From IMG/VR virus record IMGVR_UViG_3300025391_000020, positions 1-53,205 of that record: a stretch of DNA of 53,205 bases, one strand, 5' to 3'. The position numbers were made by a program, and so were the translations under genes. The notes under the pieces are model-generated. The model ran no database searches and was not told where the DNA came from. It worked only from the letters and a program-made list of their open reading frames with translations. Shown piece after piece: positions 8,577 to 39,190 of the stretch. How positions within the stretch are numbered: the stretch's first letter is position 1; each line of letters begins with the position of its first letter. This DNA is from a virus (taxonomy: Duplodnaviria; Caudoviricetes).

Positions 8577-9130
8577 AGATTGCACTCAGCAAGCGTACTA
8601 TTTCTAAAAACGGTGGCATCTATGATGCTATTGAAACCGCTTGGTACGAGTATCTCAAAGGACATGAACTTGTGTTTGTTCCAAATAGATTGGACCAAGA
8701 CTTTGATGCACTTGCTGATTCTGTCGATGGATATATCATTACAGGTGGCGACAACAGGCTTATAAGGCGTAAGACTGAACGCCGAATGACCATTGCTATG
8801 ATGAAACGGAATAAACCAATTGTAGGTGTTTGCCATGGCTGTTTTCTGCTAACCAAATTCTTAGGCGGAACTTTGGGCCGTAAAGAAGGGCACAGAGACA
8901 ACGAACACAAAGTCCAATATCACGGGCACGACTATCCAGTCAACAGTTATCATCGTTTTCATATTGAAACACTGCCCAAAAGTGCCCAAATACTAGCCAC
9001 TGACGAAGACGGGCATTGCGAAGCGTGGCTAGATCACAACATAGCCGGAGTAGTCTGGCATCCAGAACGGTTAGAATCTGGATGGGTTCCCACAGAATTA
9101 ATGAGATTTTTTGGTAAAACCGACTGTTGA
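8573..9130 (+). CDS. class I glutamine amidotransferase / peptidase C26-like protein
   Basis: ITGG, GVCHG nucleophile, VNSYH, WHPE triad motif. Confidence 0.85.
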   Translation: MKIALSKRTISKNGGIYDAIETAWYEYLKGHELVFVPNRLDQDFDALADSVDGYIITGGDNRLIRRKTERRMTIAMMKRNKPIVGVCHGCFLLTKFLGGTLGRKEGHRDNEHKVQYHGHDYPVNSYHRFHIETLPKSAQILATDEDGHCEAWLDHNIAGVVWHPERLESGWVPTELMRFFGKTDC

Positions 9131-9155
9131 CAGGGTGGTCAAATCTCTGTATAAT
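9127..9155 (+). promoter_or_regulatory. consensus sigma70 early promoter
   Basis: TTGACA-17nt-TATAAT. Confidence 0.85.
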
Positions 9156-9186
9156 ATAACTATTGTACAACACAATAGGAGCAAAA

Positions 9187-10374
9187 ATGACAGCAGTAGC
9201 AACCAAAGTTTCTAAAGCACAGGCCGCAAGAGCCTATGCCAAACGAGATCACAGTCCAAAGTGGGATAACTTAGATTTACTGAATGATGAGCAGTATGCG
9301 GCCAAATTCCGTGAGGCTATGAAGTATTACAATTTGGAAAGCAGTGGCAAAGAACTCAAACCCAAAGTTATTGATTGGATGGCTCTTAACGACTATTCCA
9401 AAGAAGACATTGCGGCATTTAAGAAAACCAAAGATTCTCGTGCTGGATTGACCATGGGTGCTATTGCTAGTTGTTTGTTAAAGGGTATGCCAGATGTGCG
9501 TCCAGGTTTTAACAAAGACCGTAGTGCCGTAGAGTGGCTACGCACAGAAATTGCCAATGTGTTGGCTGCAGGTGCTAACGATCTAGAAGAAGTCACAGAA
9601 GCCGTAAAGATCAAACAACCAGAACAAATTGTTACTATTCAAGATCGTATCCGTGAACAGGCTGTGACTATGAGTGATGAGTTAGATGCGGCAATTGACA
9701 GCTGGATCATGAATCCAGAAGCATTTGATCCCAAAGAATTCAAAGTTGTTAATCTCCTGCGTGGCAAGGGTGCCAAGGCCGCACAGGCTCGCTATATCAA
9801 ATCCTTTTTCCAGAAAGGTTATGATGAGTTGTTGGAACTGGCCAGTGGTCAAGCAGATGAACAGTTGCGTGAAGGTTACAAGCATAACACTCGTAAGAAT
9901 GTCAACAAATTGATTGCATTTTATGAAAGTATTGCCACAGCCTGTGAGCAGATTGCCGCAGAAGCCAAAGTACTTAAGAAAGTACGAGCCAAGAAAATCA
10001 AACCTGCAGAGGATTTGGTTAAGAAACTTAAATTCCGTGTCAGCGATGACAAGTTGGCTATCACCAGTGTGCCACCTGCACAGATGATCCGTGCACAGGG
10101 TGTTGTAGTCTACAATACTAAGAATCGCAAGATTGGATACTATGTCAGTACAACCAGTGAAGGCTTTGGAGTTAAAGGCACAAGCCTAACTAACTTTACT
10201 GCCAAAAGCCTGCAAAAGACCCTGCGTAAACCTGCAGAACAATTAAAAGAGTTCAAAGAGCAAAATACGCAAAAACGATTTGAAACTTGGTTTACCAAGA
10301 GTGTCAAAACCACTGAGACAGAACTCAATGGTAGATTCAATGAAGATATTGTAATATTAAAAGTGTTTAAGTAA
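9187..10374 (+). CDS. hypothetical phage protein (395 aa)
   Basis: long ORF, SD GGAG before ATG 9187. Confidence 0.8.
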   Translation: MTAVATKVSKAQAARAYAKRDHSPKWDNLDLLNDEQYAAKFREAMKYYNLESSGKELKPKVIDWMALNDYSKEDIAAFKKTKDSRAGLTMGAIASCLLKGMPDVRPGFNKDRSAVEWLRTEIANVLAAGANDLEEVTEAVKIKQPEQIVTIQDRIREQAVTMSDELDAAIDSWIMNPEAFDPKEFKVVNLLRGKGAKAAQARYIKSFFQKGYDELLELASGQADEQLREGYKHNTRKNVNKLIAFYESIATACEQIAAEAKVLKKVRAKKIKPAEDLVKKLKFRVSDDKLAITSVPPAQMIRAQGVVVYNTKNRKIGYYVSTTSEGFGVKGTSLTNFTAKSLQKTLRKPAEQLKEFKEQNTQKRFETWFTKSVKTTETELNGRFNEDIVILKVFK

Positions 10375-10389
10375 GAAAGGACACATAGT

Positions 10390-10518
10390 ATGTTTAATTT
10401 TATTATAGGTATGATATTTGGTATCGTTGTTAGTACAGCAGGTTTCAGTGGTATTGCACACATCTTAGACAAGGGTGTCGAGAGTGTCAAAACACAGACC
10501 TCAGAGATGGCAAAATGA
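10390..10518 (+). CDS. small membrane protein (42 aa)
   Basis: SD AAGGA; MFNFIIGMIFGIVVSTAG hydrophobic stretch; ATGA overlap with next gene. Confidence 0.6.
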   Translation: MFNFIIGMIFGIVVSTAGFSGIAHILDKGVESVKTQTSEMAK

Positions 10519-10748
10519 ACGAACGAATCTATACACTTGCTGAACAAACTGGTGCAACAAGATGGAATGATGAATTGAATGGCAATTCAATTGATTTTTC
10601 TCCTGAACAGTTTGAAAAGTTCGCCGAGTTGATTGTAAAAGAATGTATCCAAGTTGGTGGACCAGAAGATTCATATAGAGATGAATGGTTCGAGGCAAAA
10701 GCAGATTCAGTGTCAAAGATTAAACAACATTTCGGAGTTGAAGAATGA
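10515..10748 (+). CDS. MNERI/FAELIV/FGVEE family small protein, copy 1
   Basis: three conserved motifs present. Confidence 0.85.
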   Translation: MNERIYTLAEQTGATRWNDELNGNSIDFSPEQFEKFAELIVKECIQVGGPEDSYRDEWFEAKADSVSKIKQHFGVEE

Positions 10749-10972
10749 CTAGATATCAAACTGTTTATAAAGAAGTCGAAATCGATGTTGATTTAGCAGA
10801 CTTTGATGATGAGGAAATTTTAGACGAAATGGAAATTCGTGGTCTTGGCCTTGTTGATAGATCAATTACTACAGAATTACTTGTTACTATTTATCATAAG
10901 CGTAGAAATGGTTTAGACTATCAATATGAATTAGATCAACTCATTTATGAAGGTTTAGGTAGAATTATATGA
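10745..10972 (+). CDS. hypothetical acidic protein (passenger in array)
   Basis: starts at the ATG of box A. Confidence 0.75.
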   Translation: MTRYQTVYKEVEIDVDLADFDDEEILDEMEIRGLGLVDRSITTELLVTIYHKRRNGLDYQYELDQLIYEGLGRII

Positions 10973-11187
10973 ACGAACGAATCAATAAACTATTTGGACA
11001 GGCTATGGATCAATCTATACCAGAAACTTGGACTACACTGACCCATTCTCAGTTATCAATACTAAAGGACAAGTTCGCCGAGTTGATTGTTAAAGAATGT
11101 TGTGATATTGCTGATCAAGTAGAACGAGCAGACATGGATTCTTATGTGAGCAAATATATTCGAGCACATTTTGGAGTTGAAGAATGA
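10969..11187 (+). CDS. MNERI family small protein, copy 2
   Basis: three conserved motifs present. Confidence 0.85.
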   Translation: MNERINKLFGQAMDQSIPETWTTLTHSQLSILKDKFAELIVKECCDIADQVERADMDSYVSKYIRAHFGVEE

Positions 11188-11390
11188 ACGAACGAATTCG
11201 AGAACTTGTTAAGCAAGCCACTACTATCGAAGAACATAAGTGGGGAGTAAGTTATGATAATTTCAATAAAGAAAAGTTCGCCGAGTTGATTGTTAGGGAA
11301 TGTGGAGTAGCATTGGCACCTATGTTGCGTGATATGGTTAGTCGTGGACAAGCATTTGATTTGATTAAGAAACATTTCGGAGTTGAATGA
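11184..11390 (+). CDS. MNERI family small protein, copy 3
   Basis: three conserved motifs (ends FGVE). Confidence 0.85.
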   Translation: MNERIRELVKQATTIEEHKWGVSYDNFNKEKFAELIVRECGVALAPMLRDMVSRGQAFDLIKKHFGVE

Positions 11391-11566
11391 TGAATCTAAC
11401 AAATTTTCAAGATGACTTCACGAGAATTAGAAATACCCCAGACCAATACCGGCCTGAAGTTGAGCATAGAGGATTAAAACAAGTAAAGGTTGGTACATGG
11501 TTGTTTGGCCTGTTACCAATTTACAGATACGAATTTACCCCTTGGGAAAAGGACCGGCATGAATGA
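11387..11566 (+). CDS. hypothetical 59-aa protein (passenger, absent from ORF track)
   Basis: MMNLTNFQDD...EKDRHE starting at the box A ATG. Confidence 0.6.
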   Translation: MMNLTNFQDDFTRIRNTPDQYRPEVEHRGLKQVKVGTWLFGLLPIYRYEFTPWEKDRHE

Positions 11567-11675
11567 ATTTAATTGGGAATCAATCATTGGCACAGCCATT
11601 GCTATTGCGGGTATGTTGTTTGCATTGGTGATGGGTTATCTGATTGGTTATAATGATGCTAAGGAGGGCAGATGA
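11559..11675 (+). CDS. small membrane protein (passenger)
   Basis: MNEFNWESIIGTAIAIAGMLFALVMGYLIG single TM; SD AAGGA. Confidence 0.6.
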   Translation: MNEFNWESIIGTAIAIAGMLFALVMGYLIGYNDAKEGR

Positions 11676-11878
11676 ACGAACGAATTCAACAACTTGCTGA
11701 ACAGGCTAGAGAAAAGAAATTTGATTACCGTGCCAGAGAAGGTGAAAGTCATTACATTTATGTATTGAATGAAGAAAAGTTCGCCAAGTTGGTTGTGCGG
11801 GAATGTGTTGATACTGCCTTTCATAGAGGTCATCCTGATTTAGAATTTTTGCTGAAACATTTCGGAGTTGAAGAATGA
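11672..11878 (+). CDS. MNERI family small protein, copy 4
   Basis: three conserved motifs (KFAKLVVREC variant). Confidence 0.85.
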   Translation: MNERIQQLAEQAREKKFDYRAREGESHYIYVLNEEKFAKLVVRECVDTAFHRGHPDLEFLLKHFGVEE

Positions 11879-12159
11879 ACGAACGAATTCGACAACTTGC
11901 TGATGAGGCTGGATTAAATTATCACAACTGGATGACAAATGAATCTAATATAAACGATGGTGATTTTAAGTATCCAAGATTAGAAGATTACAAAAAGTTC
12001 GCCGAGTTGATTGTTAGGGAATGTATCACTATTGTGGACGAGCAGAAAGAATGCTTACACGAAGAACAGCAATATTGGCATGACCGAGACTATGGATATG
12101 CGTTGGCAGTGGACGATGCCAGCAAGGGTATCAAACAATTTTTCGGAGTTGAAGAATGA
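11875..12159 (+). CDS. MNERI family small protein, copy 5
   Basis: three conserved motifs present. Confidence 0.85.
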   Translation: MNERIRQLADEAGLNYHNWMTNESNINDGDFKYPRLEDYKKFAELIVRECITIVDEQKECLHEEQQYWHDRDYGYALAVDDASKGIKQFFGVEE

Positions 12160-12341
12160 ACAAAACTATTGAAGCATTTGTTCGAGGATACTTGTTCTTT
12201 GACGTTAATGGCAAAAGATTCCTGTTATATCATAGTGCAGTTTCTTATAGGAAAACAATAAATGGAAATTTGTTATTCAAAGGATGGCACATATCCAAAG
12301 GATGGCAAGGTTTTTTTGAAAGACTTGGAGTTGAAGAATGA
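12156..12341 (+). CDS. hypothetical protein bounded by box A at both ends (ends LGVEE, no box B)
   Basis: unrelated body with family C-terminus. Confidence 0.7.
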   Translation: MNKTIEAFVRGYLFFDVNGKRFLLYHSAVSYRKTINGNLLFKGWHISKGWQGFFERLGVEE

Positions 12342-12589
12342 ACGAACGAATTAGACAACTTGCTGATGAGGCTACTTCAACTCTCTCCATGAATCATGAA
12401 GGTTACAGAGGTAAAGGTTACATAGAACAAGTAGAATATTTTGACAAAGAAAAGTTCGCCGAGTTGATTGTGCGGGAATGTGCCAATCAATGTGATTTAT
12501 TGTTGGATCATAAAATAAGTTCAGAATGGGCAAGAGGCACACATGATTGCTCAAAAGCGATTAGGAAACATTTCGGAGTTGAAGAATGA
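12338..12589 (+). CDS. MNERI family small protein, copy 6
   Basis: three conserved motifs present. Confidence 0.85.
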   Translation: MNERIRQLADEATSTLSMNHEGYRGKGYIEQVEYFDKEKFAELIVRECANQCDLLLDHKISSEWARGTHDCSKAIRKHFGVEE

Positions 12590-12771
12590 TTCAAGGGTTC
12601 AAACACATAGGTGAAGATCACAAGTGTAATGTATGCAGTTGTGAATTTACCGAAGATGAAGGTGGGGTACTAGGTTACTTTGGTATACTACCTGTGGCTT
12701 TTTGCCCCACTTGTTATAGTAGCATGGTAGACATGGTCTCACAAGATTTAGAACTAGGAGAAATAGAATGA
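12586..12771 (+). CDS. small zinc-finger-like protein
   Basis: CNVC...CPTC; starts at box A ATG. Confidence 0.7.
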   Translation: MIQGFKHIGEDHKCNVCSCEFTEDEGGVLGYFGILPVAFCPTCYSSMVDMVSQDLELGEIE

Positions 12772-13189: not shown

Positions 13190-13426
13190 ATGGGCATGAC
13201 ACCCAAACAAAGAAAAGCACATCGGATGGCCCATTTGAGAGCATGGCGGGAAACTAAGGATCTTGAAAACTATCCAGAACCATTGTTTCCTGTTACTATG
13301 GATTACTATACAAAAGAGATTGTTAGACAAACTTGGATGGAGTGCCTAAAATTGTGCCGAGAGCATCCAAGTTGGACTGCTGGTATGATTGCTAAAGAAA
13401 TTAAAAATCGGTTTGGCGAAGAATGA
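13190..13426 (+). CDS. hypothetical protein, possible degenerate MNERI-family relative
   Basis: KEIVRQTWMEC and IKNRFGEE resemble family motifs. Confidence 0.55.
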   Translation: MGMTPKQRKAHRMAHLRAWRETKDLENYPEPLFPVTMDYYTKEIVRQTWMECLKLCREHPSWTAGMIAKEIKNRFGEE

Positions 13427-13698
13427 AATTAATACATGTTAATTTCAATATTAGATTACCGTTTGAATATTTCAAACATCTAGGATCTGTCCGCGGGCAA
13501 GTTAATCAACATCTAAGTTGGGAGTTAGAGCACAGCTATTATGGAGGTGAGTTGATAAACTTTTATTTTAGTTATAGTGCTCAGGAAGATCATGCAGGGT
13601 TAAATATCATAGCAGGCATATTTGGTTATGCTATTCATTTCACTGTATACGACAAAAGACATTACCCTTATGAGCCTACACAACATTCAAAAAAATGA
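13423..13698 (+). CDS. hypothetical protein
   Basis: ATGA-coupled ORF. Confidence 0.65.
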   Translation: MKLIHVNFNIRLPFEYFKHLGSVRGQVNQHLSWELEHSYYGGELINFYFSYSAQEDHAGLNIIAGIFGYAIHFTVYDKRHYPYEPTQHSKK

Positions 13699-17752: not shown

Positions 17753-17817
17753 AAGCGGTCTTGGCGTCATTCCCGCTTTACAAACTCTGCCGCCTATGCT
17801 ATAATTAACATAGGAGA
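17753..17817 (+). promoter_or_regulatory. structured 5' leader of queD (candidate pseudoknot switch)
   Basis: AAGCGG/CCGCTT stem, loop GGCG complementary to CGCC, CCTATG/CATAGG hairpin over SD. Confidence 0.5.
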
Positions 17818-17824
17818 AAACAGC

Positions 17825-18304
17825 ATGTCTAAAAAATTTATATCAACAAAAGAATATTCACATTTAGCCCCAGTGGCATATCGTCAATGGAGGGCCGACA
17901 GTCATTGTAATCTTGTCCATGGTTACGCACTATCATTCAAATTTGAATTTGAGTGTGATGACCTTGACGCCCGCAATTGGTGTTTTGATTACGGTGGTTT
18001 ACGCCCACTCAAGGACTTTTTAGAAGAACACTTTGATCATGTTCTACTATTGGCTCAAGATGATCCGCACTATGATACCATCAAGCAGTTAGGTAAATTA
18101 GGTTTGGCAAAAATTACAGAAGTAGAAAAGACTGGATGCGAAGGCATTGCAGATTTTCTATATGAGTATGTGAATACTATCTTCTTGCCAAGTTGCGGTA
18201 AGTATGAAGCAGACCGAGTTTGGTGTTCAAAAGTTGAAGTCAGAGAAACTCCATCAAATATGGCCTATCGCCAGGGTCACCGCGAAGACGGCGAGTTTAT
18301 TTAA
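17825..18304 (+). CDS. queD: 6-carboxy-5,6,7,8-tetrahydropterin synthase (QueD/PTPS)
   Basis: CNLVHGY, FDH, EVRET motifs. Confidence 0.9.
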   Translation: MSKKFISTKEYSHLAPVAYRQWRADSHCNLVHGYALSFKFEFECDDLDARNWCFDYGGLRPLKDFLEEHFDHVLLLAQDDPHYDTIKQLGKLGLAKITEVEKTGCEGIADFLYEYVNTIFLPSCGKYEADRVWCSKVEVRETPSNMAYRQGHREDGEFI

Positions 18305-18998
18305 GGATTACTTTATGTCGGCAATTTAAGTGGTGCCATCTTTTATAGTTGCCTGCACTTAAATTTCCTGTATTGCAGTGCTCGCAAACATATTTTTTAG
18401 CGTTTAGTTTTTCGGCATTTTGTTTGTTTAATTCAATTTGTAATTTTCTGGCACTAGATATTTTGGTTGCGAGCTCCGTTCCTTTTATTTTAACTCCGTA
18501 CCGAGGGTTCTTTTCACCTTTACTATGCCCTATGTCATTAAAAGTTTTTGATCGTTTAGCAGATGCCGATTTGGATTGCATATTCTTTACAAATCTTTCT
18601 GCCATTGACTTCTTAAAAGTTAGATCTGAATCCATATGTAGTCGTCTACTTTCATGACTACATTTCCATGAATCTTGAGAGTATGTATCAGTTGATATTG
18701 CCCTATTATCAGTTTTGTTTAGCCAGTCATCTTTTTTAACTGCGCCTACTCTCTTTAGGTATTCGTGCTCAAATATAAGACATTCTTCTTTACTTACAAA
18801 AGTTCTGTGAATTACAATAATATCTGGCGGACCAAACTCTTTCCAATGTTGTTTAGTATACTTAGATGATGTTTTATATTTGTGTGTTAAAATATTCTGA
18901 GGATTGGCATTCTTGCCATGTTGGCACCCGTAATATTTCATTTTTGTATTTGACCACATTAGAAAATAGGTATACGGAGAATTAGAATAAATATTCAT
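18297..18998 (-). CDS. free-standing GIY-YIG-type homing endonuclease (Seg-like) with NUMOD3-like and C-terminal Zn motifs
   Basis: PYTY...KYYG, Y.TSS, E, WLN nuclease pattern; GEKNPRYG; CEHC...NYKRWH..NC. Confidence 0.8.
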   Translation of the reverse strand: MNIYSNSPYTYFLMWSNTKMKYYGCQHGKNANPQNILTHKYKTSSKYTKQHWKEFGPPDIIVIHRTFVSKEECLIFEHEYLKRVGAVKKDDWLNKTDNRAISTDTYSQDSWKCSHESRRLHMDSDLTFKKSMAERFVKNMQSKSASAKRSKTFNDIGHSKGEKNPRYGVKIKGTELATKISSARKLQIELNKQNAEKLNAKKYVCEHCNTGNLSAGNYKRWHHLNCRHKVILK

Positions 18999-23046: not shown

Positions 23047-23214
23047 ATGAGTTATGATGCAAAAGCAGTCAAGGTTCCCAAAAGTGTTAAGCGTGTTGCG
23101 GCACAGTATATCGATCCTCATCAGCGAGGTGCTTTTATCAAGAGTTGGGTAAAAGTATTAGAAAATGGTAATGCTAGTCGTGGAGCACGCCGCGATAGAA
23201 AAGATGCTAAATGA
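23047..23214 (+). CDS. small basic protein (55 aa, absent from ORF track)
   Basis: strong SD TAAGGAG; ATGA overlap with uvsE. Confidence 0.65.
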   Translation: MSYDAKAVKVPKSVKRVAAQYIDPHQRGAFIKSWVKVLENGNASRGARRDRKDAK

Positions 23215-24239
23215 TCGCCCGGATCGGATTTTGCTGTAAATGGATTGATACATTAGAGCAATGTGACGGCATCAAACCCACAGATGATGCTCGTCAATAT
23301 AACACAGGTAGCACTACTGTTGCCTGGCTCGGTCGGCAAACTGTAGATGTAGCTGAACAAAAACTTTGGGACTTGATGGTTAGTAACATTGAGTCAATTC
23401 GTAAACTTGTAGAAAGAGTAGGTACGCTAGATGAGCACTTACGTATGGTCCGTATTGGCAGTGATATACTGCCTGTGTACACTCACCGTGATTGGATGTA
23501 TTTTTGGCGCAGGCCTGATGTCGTGGCCTACTGCGAAAAATACTTTAGAGAAGTGGGTGATCTCGCTAGGCTACGGAATGTCCGCCTTAGTTTCCATCCT
23601 GGCCAGTTTACTGTCCTGGCATCAGACAATCCAGATATTGTCGACAGAAGTATAGAGGAGTTCGAATATCATGCTGACATGGCCCGTTGGATGGGTTTTG
23701 GACAAAAATTCCAAGACCTTAAAATCAATGTACACATCGCAGGTCGTCAAGGCCCCCAAGGTATCAGGCTGGCCTATGGTCGATTGTCACCCGAAGCTCG
23801 TAACTGCCTCACAATTGAAAACGAGGAGGTAAGTTATGGGTTGGATGATTGCCTTAGCATTAGTGATGTGGTTCCTATCGTTTTGGATATACATCACCAT
23901 TGGGTTAAAACAGGAGAATACATCTCCCCCATGGACCCCCGTGTTGATCAGGTGGTTCAGTCTTGGCGTGGGGTTCGGCCTACTATGCATTATTCTGTCA
24001 GCCGTGAAAATGTACTTGTTAATCACAGCACCGTAGACAAACCAGAAATGTCCATCTTACTAGAACAGGGCTACAAAAAGGCAAAGCTCAGAGCACATTC
24101 TGATCTAATGTGGAATACCACAGTAAATGAATGGGCGCTGAGCTTTTTAGGTACACATGATATTATGTGTGAGGCCAAAGCGAAAAATCTTGCCAGCTTC
24201 GCCTTAGCCAATCAGGCTAAAGAATTAGGCCTTCTTTGA
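23211..24239 (+). CDS. uvsE: UV DNA damage endonuclease
   Basis: RIGSD, RLSFHPGQF, INVH, IENE, LDIHHH, HSD, EAKAK. Confidence 0.92.
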   Translation: MIARIGFCCKWIDTLEQCDGIKPTDDARQYNTGSTTVAWLGRQTVDVAEQKLWDLMVSNIESIRKLVERVGTLDEHLRMVRIGSDILPVYTHRDWMYFWRRPDVVAYCEKYFREVGDLARLRNVRLSFHPGQFTVLASDNPDIVDRSIEEFEYHADMARWMGFGQKFQDLKINVHIAGRQGPQGIRLAYGRLSPEARNCLTIENEEVSYGLDDCLSISDVVPIVLDIHHHWVKTGEYISPMDPRVDQVVQSWRGVRPTMHYSVSRENVLVNHSTVDKPEMSILLEQGYKKAKLRAHSDLMWNTTVNEWALSFLGTHDIMCEAKAKNLASFALANQAKELGLL

Positions 24240-24536
24240 ACGAGTAGTTGTTGTAGTTTTCTTAGCAGGTGCCTTGGGCTTTGCGGCCTTAGGTGCCTTT
24301 TCAACTTTAGGCTTGCGTGGAGCACGTGGCTTCTTAGCTGGAGCTTCTTCAACCACAGCAGGTGCTGGTGTTTCAACAACTGGTTCTGTTACAACTACAG
24401 TTTCTTCTTTAGATGCAAATTTAATACCGTTGTCAGAATAGGTTTCTGCTTCAACTACTGGTTGTGCAGGAGCTTTACGATTGTACCAAATTGCAACACC
24501 GATGGCTATAATGATAATAGCAATAATTAATTCCAT
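24225..24536 (-). CDS. membrane-anchored Lys/Pro/Ala-rich protein
   Basis: N-terminal TM, histone-like basic tail; SD AAGGA and TAAATA upstream on -. Confidence 0.75.
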   Translation of the reverse strand: MELIIAIIIIAIGVAIWYNRKAPAQPVVEAETYSDNGIKFASKEETVVVTEPVVETPAPAVVEEAPAKKPRAPRKPKVEKAPKAAKPKAPAKKTTTTTRSKKA

Positions 24537-24587
24537 GATAGGATTTCCTTTATAATGTATGTTTATTTAAGTCGCAATAAATACCAT

Positions 24588-25160
24588 ATGCAAAAAAGTT
24601 TACCTGAACTAAAACAGTTGATCATAGAAGCTGAAACTCGCAAAGAACATCTGGTCCTAGAAAAACTACCCTTTGAACGAGACGCACTTGAACCAGTAAT
24701 GAGTCAAGATACTATCGATTATCACTATGGAAAATTAGCCAAAGGCTATGTAGATCGTTACAATAAGGGCGAAGGAGATCCGGACTTTAATAAAGCCGGT
24801 GCGTTTTTACACAACATATTTTTCCCACAATTAAAAGCACCTAACGGCAGTAATAAGCCCTATGATGCCAGTGAAGAATTTATTAATAAGCATTTTAACA
24901 ATTTTGATGCCCTTAAAGCAGAAGTTGAAGAAGTGGCTATGAAAATACAAGGTAGTGGATGGGTCTACCTTGCCCGCAATGGCAAAATCAAAACTATTGC
25001 AAATCATCAAATACGCCAAGATATAGTGCTACTTATTGACTGGTGGGAACATGCTTTCGCTTTGGATCATCAAGCAGACAAGCAAAAATACTTAAAAAAT
25101 ATATGGAGGATAATTGATTGGTCAGTGATTAATGACAGAATTAGTACAAAAACTAGCTAA
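24588..25160 (+). CDS. Fe/Mn superoxide dismutase family protein
   Basis: ALEP, DYHYGK, FLHNIFF, QGSGW, DWWEHA. Confidence 0.9.
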   Translation: MQKSLPELKQLIIEAETRKEHLVLEKLPFERDALEPVMSQDTIDYHYGKLAKGYVDRYNKGEGDPDFNKAGAFLHNIFFPQLKAPNGSNKPYDASEEFINKHFNNFDALKAEVEEVAMKIQGSGWVYLARNGKIKTIANHQIRQDIVLLIDWWEHAFALDHQADKQKYLKNIWRIIDWSVINDRISTKTS

Positions 25161-28583: not shown

Positions 28584-29594
28584 ATGACTACTATAAGCAA
28601 TTTACCACCTTTAATAAACATAACCAATACTGATTTGGTTATAGTGTTAGCTGAAGATCAGCAGGTTGATCCACCTATTACGAAACAAGTATCATTAACT
28701 ACAGTATTTGCAGAAGCATATAATGGCATATTAGGTCCGCAAGGTACACAGGGATTGCAAGGTACACAGGGATTGCAAGGTACTCAGGGAGTACAAGGAT
28801 TGCAAGGGGTACAAGGTATAGCAATACAAGGTACTCAGGGATTGCAAGGGGTCCAAGGACTCCAAGGCCTGCAAGGTATTGCACTACAAGGTACACAAGG
28901 TAAAGCTGGTACCATACAAGGTGCACAAGGACTCCAAGGCGTTCAAGGTCGTGTACTACAGGGTACTCAAGGTATGGCTGGAAATTCACAAGGACTCCAA
29001 GGACTGCAGGGTGTGCAGGGAATTCAAGGACTGCAAGGCAAAGCAATACAAGGATTACAAGGTACAGCCGGTAATATTCAAGGTGTTCAAGGACTACAGG
29101 GAATTCAAGGACTGCAAGGCAAAGCAATACAAGGATTACAAGGTACAGCCGGTAATATTCAAGGTGTTCAAGGTATCGGTGGCACTAATGGAATCAACGG
29201 GACAGTTATTGCTAGGACAAATACCACAACTAATGTTACCGTTGAGGCTAATTCAAGTACCACATTTACTATTCAAGGATATAAAAGTTACGCCTTATTA
29301 AAATTAGCAACCAATGCCGCTGCCTGGGTTAGATTGTATACATCCAATGCCGCATTAACAGCAGATGCATCAAGAGTGCAGAGTATAGATCCCTTGCCAG
29401 GTACAGGCGTTATTTTAGATGTTGTTACCACAAGCTCTACTCTAGTTCCATATACTCAACCAATTACTCCGGCATTGATCGGATTCAATGACGATGCAAC
29501 CCCTACAATAAACATATACGCGGCTGCAACTAATTTGAGCAACACAGCAACAACTTTAACAGTTACACTGACATTATTGCAGTTAGAAACTTAA
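28584..29594 (+). CDS. collagen-like tail fibre protein
   Basis: G-x-Q triplets ~28734-29175; TISNLP N-terminus. Confidence 0.85.
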   Translation: MTTISNLPPLINITNTDLVIVLAEDQQVDPPITKQVSLTTVFAEAYNGILGPQGTQGLQGTQGLQGTQGVQGLQGVQGIAIQGTQGLQGVQGLQGLQGIALQGTQGKAGTIQGAQGLQGVQGRVLQGTQGMAGNSQGLQGLQGVQGIQGLQGKAIQGLQGTAGNIQGVQGLQGIQGLQGKAIQGLQGTAGNIQGVQGIGGTNGINGTVIARTNTTTNVTVEANSSTTFTIQGYKSYALLKLATNAAAWVRLYTSNAALTADASRVQSIDPLPGTGVILDVVTTSSTLVPYTQPITPALIGFNDDATPTINIYAAATNLSNTATTLTVTLTLLQLET

Positions 29595-31760
29595 ATGTCT
29601 ACATATTCTACAACACTAAATGTTTCTTATGGTAGTGATCCATTACAATTTGTAAATTTGTATGTTCCTACAGGAACTCCAAAAGGAACTATTTTACATA
29701 TACACGGTGGTGCATGGTCTGCAGTTAATGGATCAGTAGGACCATCATCAACATCAACTGATCCTAATATGATACCATTTGTTACAGCAGGATATGCTGT
29801 GATAGATATGCAATATCGTGATCGAGGAGTAGGCAATGGCGGAGGAACCTACATTACAGGAAACTCTCCGGGAGATGTTGCAGATGTTGTTACTGTATTA
29901 AGTCATTGTTTAGATTCTGCTGTGGCTGCGTCTGCAGGGGGAAGTTGGCCAAGTGTACAAAGTTATATTGCCGCTAATGGTGGATTATTTGTAGGTGGTT
30001 CTAGTGCTGGAGGACATCTAACTATCATGGGTGTTTGTACCTACGGGACAAATTCAGGAAAATGGCCCAAGGGGGCTATTAGTATAGCAGGACCACTTAA
30101 CATAGATTATTTTACTACATCAACAAATTATATTGATCCGTATATAAGATCAATAATTGTCGATGATTATATTCATACTGGTCTTGAAGCAGATCAAAAA
30201 CTGGCCAGTCCGCTTTGGCAATATGGAACACAATTAGGTGAAGGTGAGGCTCCTACTCCAGGACCATGGTTTAGTGCAGTAAATGCCAGTGCCTGCAAAT
30301 TTATTTTTGTCCAAAATGATAACGATACATTGGTACCTCTCCATACTGTGGCACCATGCATTGTTAGTTTTACCACTTATAATTCTACCAATACTAGTGT
30401 AATCCGTGTATTAGAAGGCCCACCTTTAGGTGATTGGGACGGATTTAGTCCTATTACCAATAAAGGTTCGTTGTCTTTAACGAGTCAATTACCTAGCAGT
30501 GGTCAAACATTAGGTGATATGTATTCATTGCCAAATGGCACTTGGGTTTATAACAATGGCACTTACCCCGGTGATGCATTTTATCCAGCATCAGTAAATG
30601 GATTTACACTTTGGTTCCAACATAATTATACAACTCAGGAATATCCAATGTTGTTAGATAATGCCAACGCAGTATTTGGAAATATTACACTATCACCTAC
30701 GGGAACATTGACCACAGGTACAACTGGTGTATTATATAGTCAACAGATTACTGCCAGTGGTGGCACAGGCCCATATACATATACAATGGCGTATGTCCCT
30801 AGCAATCTGATTAATGGTATTAATTTAAGTTCTTCGGGATTGCTTTCTGGAACTACCAGTGTTCCAGGTTTATATGCGTTTTCAATAAGAGCCACAGATG
30901 TCAATGGCGCCACAGTGGTAGGAAACTATCAACTGACAATTACAAGTGCCGCTCCTATAAAATACAATCCCAAACCTTTTTTACAAGGTCAGGATGCAAT
31001 ATTTACAGGAAATCGGTATCCTAGAGGCTATTGGCACAACCAATATCACATGGGTATCGAGACACAATTTTCTGGTGACATTTCGAATAGTACAAATGCT
31101 AATCCAGATTTTAGTGCAACTCAGGTTTATGTGGTAGATGAAATATGGTGGGGTACAGGAAAACCTACTGGACAAGATCTACAGGCATTGTGTGATTATT
31201 GGCGATATCACGGTATTAGTCCAGGTGTAGGTATTAATCATGCTGCCGAAGGAGGGTATTTTGGCAACACTCCTGTACCAACTGCTACTATACTTGCAGA
31301 TGCAATAAGGTGTGATTGGATAGCATTAGATCCATATTTGTTTACAGCTAGTGTGCCATATTTTAATAGCGGTAACTCTGCAATAACACAGACTAGCATT
31401 AACACTACTATTGCAGGGTTAGTTAATTGGACACAAGGTTGGATTGATAGACTTGCACCATATGGCATTCCTGTTGTACTAATCACACAAGGTATTAGAG
31501 AATTAAGTATGCCTCAGAATTATGTGGATCAATACTTAGAAGTACAATATAGTACTTTTGGAATACAGCAAACACCACTTAGACTGGTATTTCCTTATGA
31601 AGTATTGTTAGGCCTCGAAGTGTTTACATTAGTTAATGTAGATGTTAGTGGGCACGTTAATGCACATCCTTTTGCTAAAACCAATCAACATTTTCCAAAT
31701 TTAACTTCTGCTAGACCTGCCAAAGGTCAGTTATACCCTAGAAATACTTTCAAGTACTAA
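29595..31760 (+). CDS. alpha/beta hydrolase (esterase) fused to Ig-like domain and unknown C-terminal domain
   Basis: HIHGGAW oxyanion, GGSSAGG nucleophile elbow, DTLVP; YSQQITASGGTGPYTY Ig-like repeat. Confidence 0.8.
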   Translation: MSTYSTTLNVSYGSDPLQFVNLYVPTGTPKGTILHIHGGAWSAVNGSVGPSSTSTDPNMIPFVTAGYAVIDMQYRDRGVGNGGGTYITGNSPGDVADVVTVLSHCLDSAVAASAGGSWPSVQSYIAANGGLFVGGSSAGGHLTIMGVCTYGTNSGKWPKGAISIAGPLNIDYFTTSTNYIDPYIRSIIVDDYIHTGLEADQKLASPLWQYGTQLGEGEAPTPGPWFSAVNASACKFIFVQNDNDTLVPLHTVAPCIVSFTTYNSTNTSVIRVLEGPPLGDWDGFSPITNKGSLSLTSQLPSSGQTLGDMYSLPNGTWVYNNGTYPGDAFYPASVNGFTLWFQHNYTTQEYPMLLDNANAVFGNITLSPTGTLTTGTTGVLYSQQITASGGTGPYTYTMAYVPSNLINGINLSSSGLLSGTTSVPGLYAFSIRATDVNGATVVGNYQLTITSAAPIKYNPKPFLQGQDAIFTGNRYPRGYWHNQYHMGIETQFSGDISNSTNANPDFSATQVYVVDEIWWGTGKPTGQDLQALCDYWRYHGISPGVGINHAAEGGYFGNTPVPTATILADAIRCDWIALDPYLFTASVPYFNSGNSAITQTSINTTIAGLVNWTQGWIDRLAPYGIPVVLITQGIRELSMPQNYVDQYLEVQYSTFGIQQTPLRLVFPYEVLLGLEVFTLVNVDVSGHVNAHPFAKTNQHFPNLTSARPAKGQLYPRNTFKY

Positions 31761-31802
31761 ATCAATTTCATATAAATACACTTATTACAGGTAATCGATA
31801 TA

Positions 31803-34025
31803 ATGACCACAAGACCAAATCTTACAGCACTACCCCATTTAACTAACCCTACAGCGGGCGAAACATTGGTAATTGTTCAAGATTCAGCTGTAAATCAATA
31901 TATCACTATACCACAGGCTAGAGAATTATTATCAGGCGGTCCTAGCGGTCCTAGCGGTCCATTGGGCTTTCAAGGTGTACAAGGTCCTCAGGGATTACAA
32001 GGTCCTCAGGGATTACAGGGTGTTCAGGGTTTGCAAGGTTTACAGGGACATTGGGGTCCACAAGGAGTTCAAGGACTTCAAGGACTGCAGGGTGTTCAGG
32101 GATTGCAAGGAGTACAAGGAATACAAGGACAGCGCGGTATTCAAGGACTTCAAGGAGTCCAAGGCAATCAAGGAGTCCAAGGCAATCAAGGAGTCCAAGG
32201 CAATCAAGGGGTCCAAGGCCCCCCATCTAATGTAACTAATGCAGTTACCGGTGGAAGTACCGGTAGTCTACTTATACAATCGTCAGCAAATGTAACTAGT
32301 TTTGTACCAATTGGTCCAAATGGATATCTATTACAATCAAACGGTACAACTGCTACATGGGTAAGTACAAGTAGTATTGTAACTTCTCCTGGACAAGCAA
32401 ACAAAATTTATGTCAACACATTAACCAACACAGACTCTACAACTTATTATCCAGTAATGGTGCCCGGAGTAGGGTCATATGTTAACGATTATGCCAGCGC
32501 TAAATTAAGTTATGTTGGTAGTACTGGAGTACTAACAGTACCGTCAATCGCAATAACAACTACTACTGATTCTGTATCAACTACTACAGGTGCGTTAACA
32601 GTTGCCGGGGGTATCGGTATTGGCGGTAACATTTATTTTGATGGAGATTTATATCAACATGGACAATTATTTGTAAGTGGTACTCAAGGTCCGCAGGGTG
32701 TGCAGGGGACACAGGGTATTCAAGGAGTACAAGGGCTTCAAGGTGAACAAGGGCTTCAAGGAACGCAAGGTCTGCAGGGAGTCCAAGGTATTGCTATTCA
32801 AGGTGTACAGGGACAAGCCGGCAGTATTCAAGGAACACAGGGCGTGCAGGGAACACAAGGACTAGGTTCTCAAGGTGCACAAGGTATGGCTATTCAAGGT
32901 ACTGCCGGAAATACTCAAGGAGTTCAGGGAGTTCAGGGAACACAAGGACTAGGTTCTCAAGGTGCCCAAGGTATGGCTATTCAAGGTGCCGCTGGAAATG
33001 TTCAAGGAGTTCAGGGGACACAGGGGACACAGGGTATAGGTGCCCAAGGTGCACAAGGTATGGCTATTCAAGGTGCCGCTGGAAATACTCAAGGAGTTCA
33101 AGGAGTTCAAGGAACACAAGGTATAGGTACTCAGGGTGCACAAGGTATGGCTATTCAAGGTGCCGCTGGAAATACTCAAGGAGTTCAAGGAGTTCAAGGA
33201 GTTCAAGGAGTTCAAGGTGTAGCCATTCAAGGTACTGCTGGAAATACTCAAGGAGTTCAAGGAGTTCAAGGAGTTCAAGGAGTTCAAGGTGTAGCCATTC
33301 AAGGTACTGCTGGTGATGTTCAAGGGGTTCAAGGGGTTCAAGGCCGGTTAGGTAATCAAGGTAACCAGGGATTCCAAGGTAACCAGGGATTCCAAGGTAA
33401 CCAGGGATTCCAAGGTAACCAGGGATTCCAAGGTAACCAGGGATTCCAAGGTAATCAGGGATTCCAAGGTAATCAGGGATATCAAGGTTTTCAGGGATTT
33501 CAAGGAGCAGGTTTTCAGGGATATCAAGGTAATCAGGGATATCAAGGTAATCAGGGATATCAAGGTAATCAGGGATATCAAGGTTTGGGTAATCAGGGAT
33601 ATCAAGGTAACCAAGGTAATCAAGGTTTTCAGGGATATCAAGGTAACCAAGGTAATCAAGGTAATCAAGGTTCGGGTAATCAGGGATATCAAGGTAATCA
33701 GGGATATCAAGGAGGTCCAGGTAGTGGTGGAATTACATCATTTTCAGTCGGTGGCCCAGGATCAGCAGGATATGCAATATTCGGCAATGGATTAGTTATA
33801 CAATGGGGATTTAGTGCTACATGGGGTGGCTCAACTTTAGCTCAAGCAATTAATACTCCACTATCACTCGCAGTAAGTTATTATAATTTAACTCATAATG
33901 CAGGAGACACATATAGTATCGGTGAAATATCAGCCAAACTAACAGGTGGACCACCCTATACTACAATAACTCCTTCTACTAACGGCAACACAAATGAGTG
34001 GTGTTGGATTTTGATAGGTTATTAA
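31803..34025 (+). CDS. collagen-like long tail fibre protein
   Basis: two G-x-Q tracts; [13 protein letters not shown]; C-terminal GNGLVIQWG tip domain. Confidence 0.88.
32680..33712 (+). repeat. coding tandem repeats (9, 18 and ~60 nt units) encoding G-x-Q collagen triplets
   Basis: e.g. CAAGGTAACCAGGGATTC and CAAGGAGTT tandem runs. Confidence 0.85.
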
Positions 34026-38126: not shown

Positions 38127-38667
38127 TTCAGTACATCAATTTATTTGGCCTACAGGATTTGCTTGTACATTAATTACAGAAAAAATTATAGTTCCAAATT
38201 CTTATTCTATCGGCGTTCATATTGAACCCAGTGCCCAAATGAACATTGCTTTAGGTTTTAGAAAACTTAGATACTTTATTGAACACTATCTTCAAAACAG
38301 TATTTTTGTTCACAGGGAACATCCAATGGTTCCTATATTATTAGAATTAGAAACCAATTTAGTATTATTTCCAACAGATCCCTATGATTATTTTGTAGGT
38401 GGGGTACTTAACAGTAAGTTTATTGCTATTACCCAAAAATATTTTAATATCAGTGCTATAACCATTGACAGTGCGGTAGGAGATCATATACAATACTGTA
38501 TAGAAGAACCAGAAGACTGTGGTTTAGAACTCAAAGGCGATCACTGGTGGAATATAGATTCAACAGGTACAGGCTCTCAAGATGAGAATTCTTGGGAAGA
38601 ACTTAATATTACAGATAGCCCTAGATTCGAACCACGAATTGTTAAGGGCGGACGCAGTGAAGATTGA
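38116..38667 (+). CDS. hypothetical protein (possible degenerate QueD-like fold)
   Basis: operon ORF; weak pattern similarity to queD. Confidence 0.65.
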   Translation: MLNDSVHQFIWPTGFACTLITEKIIVPNSYSIGVHIEPSAQMNIALGFRKLRYFIEHYLQNSIFVHREHPMVPILLELETNLVLFPTDPYDYFVGGVLNSKFIAITQKYFNISAITIDSAVGDHIQYCIEEPEDCGLELKGDHWWNIDSTGTGSQDENSWEELNITDSPRFEPRIVKGGRSED

Positions 38668-39190
38668 CAAATACGGACAAGCATTAATATCAACCGAAGA
38701 AGCATTTCAAGCATTGTATAACAACAAGTTATCTTCGCTTAAAGATGTGTATGTTGACGATGATAAAACCATTGACCATTATAATACAGCCTGTGATATC
38801 AACGCTGATAAAATTCCTAGATTACAAAAATTGCTAGATAAAGGTTTAAGTATTGAAGAATTTGATCGTAAAAATCAAAGTCAATGGTATATGCCGCAAG
38901 AATATTTAAATTTTGACATAGAATCTTGGTTAACTGAACAATGCAATACTGACACAAAAATGATTAGATTGCAGAATGAACTAGTACTTTTTCGCCAACT
39001 TAATATGATCGACCTACTAAGATATCTTAAATACTTAGTAGATACCATGCGAAAACATAATATTGTATGGGGAGTGGGTCGAGGTAGTAGTGTAGCCAGT
39101 TATGCTCTGTATCTCATAGGTATACATAAAATTGATAGTATAAAATTCAATTTAGATATAAATGAATTTTTAAGAACACAAGGAGAATAA
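38657..39190 (+). CDS. DNA polymerase III alpha (DnaE)-like fragment
   Basis: WGVGRGSSVASYALYLIGIHKID...EFL; ends before the catalytic DxD. Confidence 0.85.
   Translation: MKIDKYGQALISTEEAFQALYNNKLSSLKDVYVDDDKTIDHYNTACDINADKIPRLQKLLDKGLSIEEFDRKNQSQWYMPQEYLNFDIESWLTEQCNTDTKMIRLQNELVLFRQLNMIDLLRYLKYLVDTMRKHNIVWGVGRGSSVASYALYLIGIHKIDSIKFNLDINEFLRTQGE

Follow-up and report, generated by a model that had tools for sequence, protein, structure and literature searches.

An array of six paralogous phage mini-genes whose three constant blocks probably serve as exchange points for homology-dependent recombination

The PeSLs of T4-type phages are described as intergenic elements composed of a promoter and a stem-loop terminator, which form short linkers in variable regions where small genes are inserted, deleted and swapped by homologous recombination (Arbiol 2010, PMC2839356; Comeau 2014, PMC4122927). 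In the gp38 adhesin of T-even phages, hypervariable segments are reported to reside between conserved motifs, with exchange in or near the motifs and a population-wide pool of segments (PMC3157838). Similarly, small variable genes are exchanged at conserved elements in the internal protein (IP) loci of T-even phages (Repoila 1994, as cited in PMC2839356). The locus described here is located in a 53,205-nt stretch of viral DNA (Duplodnaviria; Caudoviricetes; IMG/VR record IMGVR_UViG_3300025391_000020), which is referred to as the window in its full length. Its mini-genes consist of two variable segments, V1 and V2, and three constant blocks, designated block C, box B and box A.

The array resembles the PeSLs in that short conserved linkers exchange small genes and no dedicated recombinase has been identified, and gene exchange at a repeated element was found at our locus as well. 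The linkers differ in that they are coding, one of them residing mid-gene and shuffling half-proteins, and that none of them is a promoter or terminator. PeSL elements would each be expected to carry a sigma-70 early promoter and an adjacent stem-loop terminator, whereas no promoter-like site is present in any box, no terminator was found on the + strand between positions 8900 and 13500, and stems between the blocks are unsupported. The likeness to gp38 lies in the swapping of variable segments at conserved coding motifs. However, gp38 is a single-copy virion adhesin with glycine-rich motifs, whereas the array encodes multi-copy proteins of 60-100 aa that are predicted to be helical, and its blocks also move whole genes. 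Homology to gp38 or a tail-fibre context was not found; the family matches no Pfam, PHROG or NCBIfam entry, and its neighbours are small non-structural genes. The elements of the IP loci are reported to be based on early promoters and to occur at two loci only, whereas the mini-gene family is present at several places per genome. Taken as a whole, the array works like the modular shuffling of PeSLs and gp38, yet it does not belong to the PeSLs.

Integron cassette arrays consist of small genes between repeated sites and are reordered and exchanged, features that are shared by the array. In contrast to integrons, neither an IntI-type tyrosine recombinase nor an attC-like hairpin with a fixed crossover was found in the material surveyed, and exchange occurs also inside genes. 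Nor is the array CRISPR-like, as the variable segments are in frame with a dN/dS of 0.105 and Cas1 was detected in none of six records. A diversity-generating retroelement is not indicated either, since the reverse transcriptase profile PF00078 was absent from five records (two complete) and from the window, and the variation takes the form of segment swaps.

Layout, products and distribution of the array

The array of six family mini-genes with its boxes was confirmed to be a real feature. Six paralogous genes of 68-94 aa contain the boxes, and five unrelated cargo genes are interleaved. Each family gene is arranged in the order block C (MNERI..LAEQA), V1, box B (EKFAELIVREC), V2 and box A (HFGVEE, followed by the stop and the overlapping start of the next gene). 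All genes are located on the + strand, beginning with u1 (10515..10748, 77 aa; block C 10515-10550, box B 10614-10646, box A 10728-10748) and a cargo gene of 75 aa that belongs to no family (10745..10972), which starts within box A by an ATGA overlap and resides behind a different box A copy in run X5 (loose end of 15 letters). Next to u2 (10969..11187, 72 aa; box B 11068-11100, box A 11167-11187) and u3 (11184..11390, 68 aa; box B 11271-11303, shortened box A 11373-11390) are a cargo gene of 59 aa (11387..11566), which is also found behind a u3-like V1 gene in locus L090, and a hydrophobic one of 38 aa (11559..11675), which is joined to the V1 of u2 at block C in run X14. A 61-aa cargo gene without box B (12156..12341), starting in one box A and ending in the right part of another, separates u4 (11672..11878, 68 aa; box B variant 11774-11806, box A 11858-11878) and u5 (11875..12159, 94 aa; box B 11992-12024, box A 12139-12159) from u6 (12338..12589, 83 aa; box B 12449-12481, box A 12569-12589). 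The last cargo gene, 61 aa with two CxxC pairs (12586..12771), starts within the final box A and is matched in five other loci.

Upstream of the array lies a conserved phage gene of 403 aa (9163..10374, + strand; phrog_11903), which occurs in 65 related loci at 39-71% identity and has distant relatives in PA5oct-like and T4-type phages. Box B is present in only 15 of these 65 loci, and thus the position of the array is not fixed. A perfect match to a sigma-70-type promoter (TTGACA-17-TATAAT, 12/12) is located at 9127..9155 (+ strand) and is, judged by its sequence, likely to drive early transcription of the operon to which the array belongs. Together with the lack of a + strand terminator up to position 13500, it suggests that the genes are transcribed as one early operon. 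Further downstream, an ORF of 78 aa (13190-13426) contains an EC motif, has an ATGA overlap and terminates with RFGEE. It has the appearance of a degenerate family tail attached to a different gene, and the family profile did not match it.

Several other features of the window deserve mention. The intergenic region 17754-17829, 5' of a QueD/PTPS gene (17825-18304), is shared at 88-94% identity with at least 11 relatives, the coding DNA of which has diverged much further; it has no Rfam match and might possibly be a regulatory RNA or a promoter. On the - strand, against the direction of its neighbours, lies an ORF of 233 aa (18297-18998) without a Pfam match, the N-terminus of which presumably resembles GIY-YIG homing endonucleases. 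A UvdE UV endonuclease is located beside a superoxide-dismutase-like ORF (23211-25160), two long fibre genes of the collagen-like QG-repeat type, with GxQ repeats in tandem, occupy 28584-34025, and 38582-39190 encodes an isolated 202-aa part of DNA polymerase III alpha.

With regard to the products, a rough counting method yielded a dN/dS of about 0.105 for both V1 (105 pairs) and V2 (98 pairs), indicating purifying selection on both segments as protein. Accordingly, V1 and V2 are in-frame protein segments and not spacers, and all 189 exact box B copies with sufficient flank are located in open frames. The original prediction of a coding repeat-spacer array with two alternating repeats has therefore to be revised, also with respect to the number of repeats, as a third block, block C, recurs at six positions. 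Structural modeling of u6 resulted in three helices and a hairpin formed by V1 (pLDDT 86.5, pTM 0.71). No clear structural relative was found in the PDB (best E 0.32 by Foldseek; best Z 5.7 by VIA-align, rmsd 3.2 over 60 residues), and viral structures matched at E <0.01 were exclusively uncharacterised or unnamed. In Pfam and NCBIfam, none of 141 family members was matched, and the neighbours of the family in the Atlas are unnamed viral clusters. Based on the model, the products are likely to be three-helix proteins with two variable segments that may act early as binders in host takeover or anti-defence.

The mini-gene family comprises at least 7,998 clusters at 90% identity, the profile matching 7,998 of 8,000 clusters scored. 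The window represents some 14% of its virus genome. Complete relatives have a size of about 355 kb, and a Gp23-family capsid was identified in both complete records examined. All 24 listed sequencing runs with the sequence are freshwater DNA, and no RNA run was listed. Among isolated phages no match was obtained; in GTDB genomes the box B pattern occurred in only 16 stretches, all in MAG contigs, which are probably mis-binned phage DNA. We found no published description of the family, although closed journals and supplements could hold one.

Conservation of the blocks as DNA

Box B (AAGTTCGCCGAGTTGATTGT) is exact at positions 10617, 11071, 11274, 11995 and 12452 and has two mismatches at 11777, while 100 shuffles of the sequence gave no match at all. 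Box A (GGAGTTGAAGAATGA) is exact at 10734, 11173, 11864, 12145, 12327 and 12575 and shortened at 11379, with a chance mean of 0.29 and observed counts that shuffling never reached. Block C (ATGAACGAACGAAT..., coding for MNERI) is located at 10515, 10969, 11184, 11672, 11875 and 12338. Thus, the copy numbers originally given for boxes A and B were confirmed, as was the presence in both boxes of an out-of-frame core, TTCG(CC)GAGTTGA. The GC-ending codons noted for box B are also borne out by the codon usage of the window (AAG 0.24, TTC 0.24, GCC 0.22, GAG 0.18, TTG 0.17, ATT 0.50), from which its six-codon string would be expected with a probability of 2e-4.

That the boxes are conserved beyond the needs of the protein, as had been proposed, was borne out by scans of IMG/VR in which the patterns accepted every synonymous codon. 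The scan for box B covered 4 of 64 IMG/VR parts and yielded at least 138 loci with 178 distinct copies, 129 of which have unrelated flanks. In these 129 copies the codons were retained as AAG in 116, TTC in 99, GCC in 104, GAG in 112, TTG in 111 and ATT in 126, while the third position of the Val codon following ATT varies freely (GTT 60, GTG 47, GTC 17, GTA 5). For box A (136 loci, 185 distinct copies, 151 unrelated), CAT was kept in 148, TTC in 115, GGA in 150 and GTT in 145 of the 151 copies, and the Arg codon of block C is CGA in all 31 MNERI starts. The silent sites of the boxes do therefore not vary freely. Silent differences amounted to 0.45 in V1 and 0.39 in V2 versus 0.24 and 0.19, about half, in box B of the same pairs. 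One V1 family, fetched by its own motif, has a looser box B (TTC and GAG each in 31 of 66); it was represented by 83 distinct copies of 120 loci, 17 of which failed the box pattern and were set aside.

Homogenisation within genomes was considered as the cause of the consensus and rejected, as box likeness within and between genomes was 0.809 and 0.800, respectively (p 0.26); despite this overall value, a slight within-genome excess was observed at positions 20-23 (p 0.01). Position 20 of the box and the next codon are free to vary in the middle of the block, which is not explained by selection for identity alone. Hairpins pairing box B with block C or with box A were similarly rejected: no covariation over shuffles was detected, the mean pair probabilities were 0.05 and 0.08 and the folding z was -0.41.

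Exchange of gene halves and neighbouring genes

All evidence for exchange stems from assembled contigs, and no recombination event, circle or within-sample deletion was observed directly. From 331 complete genes, the 264 with all three blocks were kept; they comprise 213 V1 families, 215 V2 families and 257 combinations, and in 17 of the 22 pairs with V1 segments at least 95% identical, V2 was unrelated. When 507 copies centred on the box were pooled, a set in which one V1 and one V2 family are over-represented, the other half was unrelated in 57 of 80 pairs matched in V1 at 97% identity and in 127 of 152 counterpart pairs. Identity reaches the edge of the box and ends beyond. For the V2 of u3 (47 distinct copies from 70 sources, 14 of them without a box in register and set aside), the 33 copies retained combine with 29 V1 partners and are followed by 31 different contexts, and the 66 copies of one V1 family have 45 V2 partners between them. 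Across box A, the downstream sequence was unrelated in 51 of 57 pairs with the same upstream sequence.

The internal ends of DNA matches to the array of the window support the same exchange points, as 57 of 66 fall in a block or no more than 3 nt from one, compared to 31% expected from the block share of the region, in loci that were chosen for boxes or for one V2. Individual loci provide concrete cases. In L002 a single gene consists of the V1 of u3 (100%) and the V2 of u6 (97%), as expected of a deletion from the box B at 11274 to that at 12452; in L702 the V1 of u5 is joined to a u3-type V2; in L206 the V1 and V2 of u2 occur in two genes about 800 nt apart; in L090 the V1 of u6 is placed before that of u3; and in four loci u3 is intact. 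An exchange at block C is indicated by the joint 11671 to 10969 in run X14 (short side 47 letters, 14 shared letters). Most joints in sequencing runs have sides below 30 letters and were left out of the counts. The flank 10450-10601 was almost without cover in runs X14, X18 and X20, in which the modules were covered, and the uncovered part was not counted as evidence. Boxes close to the consensus swap more, as 43 of 48 pairs with 0-1 mismatches did so versus 22 of 34 with three or more, the pairs not being independent.

Exchange from B to B thus pairs any V1 with any V2 in frame, and exchange from A to A and from C to C swaps the neighbouring gene. As box A brings the stop, the ribosome site and the overlapping start, a new neighbour keeps its translational coupling. 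Unrelated genes in L198, L204, L206, L121 and L686 end with a complete box A tail (..KHFGVEE), suggesting that this tail has been grafted onto foreign genes. The constant blocks, accordingly, mark swap points for gene halves, whole genes and unrelated genes between phages. The proposal that the boxes are crossover sites stands in so far as the breakpoints are located at them; the shared core as a common site does not, as outlined below.

Possible mechanisms and implications

We consider it probable that the three blocks of this operon of six paralogous mini-genes serve as exchange points through homology-dependent recombination of the RecA/UvsX type. V1 and V2 halves and neighbouring genes would be exchanged at the blocks by the general machinery of the phages, with heteroduplex or crossovers spread over the whole block of about 30 nt and no fixed cut. 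Silent sites would be held at one population-wide consensus because only consensus-like blocks enter the exchange pool, and new combinations of V1 and V2 might be favoured. This is favoured by the lack of a fixed breakpoint within box B, the lack of A-B exchange, the exchange at block C, which has no core, the absence of a dedicated recombinase from the records surveyed and the presence of RecA/UvsX, found in five of five records tested. A search for a recombinase or reverse transcriptase accompanying the array had been suggested originally, and none was identified in records carrying the mini-gene family or in the window, whose own genome is mostly missing: tyrosine recombinases (PF00589) were absent from ten related records (four complete) and from the window, serine recombinases from five complete records, and Cas1, IS110 and Rad52-family annealing proteins from six records each. 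A search for UvsY matched nowhere and is uninformative. With a length of 15-33 nt, the blocks are on the short side to be exchanged by a RecA-type reaction; T4 recombination patches of <50 bp are cited in PMC2839356. The shared core, the free bases within the box and the lack of within-genome homogenisation are left over by homology-dependent recombination.

In a different reading, a putative sequence-specific protein (a nickase, endonuclease or loader) binds the core and starts recombination, and the flanking homology limits exchange to A-A and B-B. The 7-mer is common to A and B in different frames, for which chance gives 0.6-3.5% post hoc; the consensus is population-wide and not genome-specific, GC-ending codons are held at 37-40% GC, and swaps outnumber point changes in near-identical modules. 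Nevertheless, we regard such an initiator as unlikely, since block C exchanges without the core, the core is no more conserved than the rest of box B (GAG 0.87 and TTG 0.86 versus AAG 0.90 and ATT 0.98), and in the related genomes L188 and L148 a private box B variant breaks GAGTTGA in several copies while the halves are still swapped. Nor is there a Chi-like enrichment of the core, with 11 observed versus 16.1 expected in the long genes of genome G005 and 1 versus 2.7 in the window. A classical site-specific system, integron-like or shufflon-like, with a fixed cut in the core is very improbable and largely refuted. It would be in line with short repeated sites around cassette-sized genes, and both boxes contain GTT followed by what we take to be a near match to GTTRRRY. 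A fixed cut would, however, link the left bases to V1 and the right bases to V2, whereas linkage is flat and the box B alleles follow neither flank: the four variable bases at positions 20-23 were kept in 10 of 51 V1-only and 11 of 59 V2-only pairs, both counts referring to disjoint pairs, compared to 13 of 17 both-halves pairs and about 5% of unrelated ones, and minor alleles go with either flank about equally (position 5, 5/15 versus 4/15; position 11, 5/12 versus 6/16). In addition to the missing recombinases and hairpin, genuine A-B hybrids were not found. Full IMG/VR scans gave one B-left/A-right and 11 A-left/B-right matches, every one of them in an unrelated gene whose locus contains no further box, and the fetched loci, with 328 B and 289 A contexts, contained none, an absence that is no proof, as a hybrid of this kind would carry a frameshift and selection may remove it. 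The core as a crossover site common to A and B was therefore rejected.

It might also be argued that the boxes are conserved for expression, as a ribosome site, for translational coupling or for an RNA-binding regulator, and that recombination merely uses the shared homology. In box A, GGAG precedes the ATGA overlap by seven bases, and the following start is of the family type in 55 of 151 copies and unmatched by the family pattern in the remaining 96, which explains part of the conservation of this box. In contrast, box B lies mid-gene and, as had been stated at the outset, has no such role: no conserved start or promoter is present there, the only perfect promoter match in the region being that at 9127-9155. 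Given also the unsupported inter-block stems and the lack of an Rfam match, we consider this possibility improbable. The least probable explanation, and an extremely improbable one, is that the chimeras were produced by faulty assembly across short repeats. The data consist entirely of assembled contigs, and Logan contigs do break at the boxes. However, the same V1-V2 pairing recurs in independent contigs, the partners differ by silent changes and at positions 20-23 where mis-joins would copy the parent, and the conservation of silent sites is independent of assembly over repeats.

Homology-dependent exchange by the RecA/UvsX-type machinery is thus our preferred explanation. It might further be speculated, although we think this unlikely to be correct as a whole, that the giant phages of freshwater maintain a population-wide antibody-like library on a three-helix scaffold, in which V segments would be reshuffled by a phage factor reading GAGTTGA to give new inhibitors of host or rival-phage proteins.

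The linker model of modular phage evolution is illustrated by the array with unusual clarity, and it applies here both within and between genes. The scaffold halves assort almost freely, while each is still under purifying selection. The boxes offer an exact substrate for studying the minimum length of homology that can serve phages and the reasons for which silent sites may become frozen when a sequence has to recombine. Should the proteins be binders, the family would constitute a natural combinatorial library of phage effectors.
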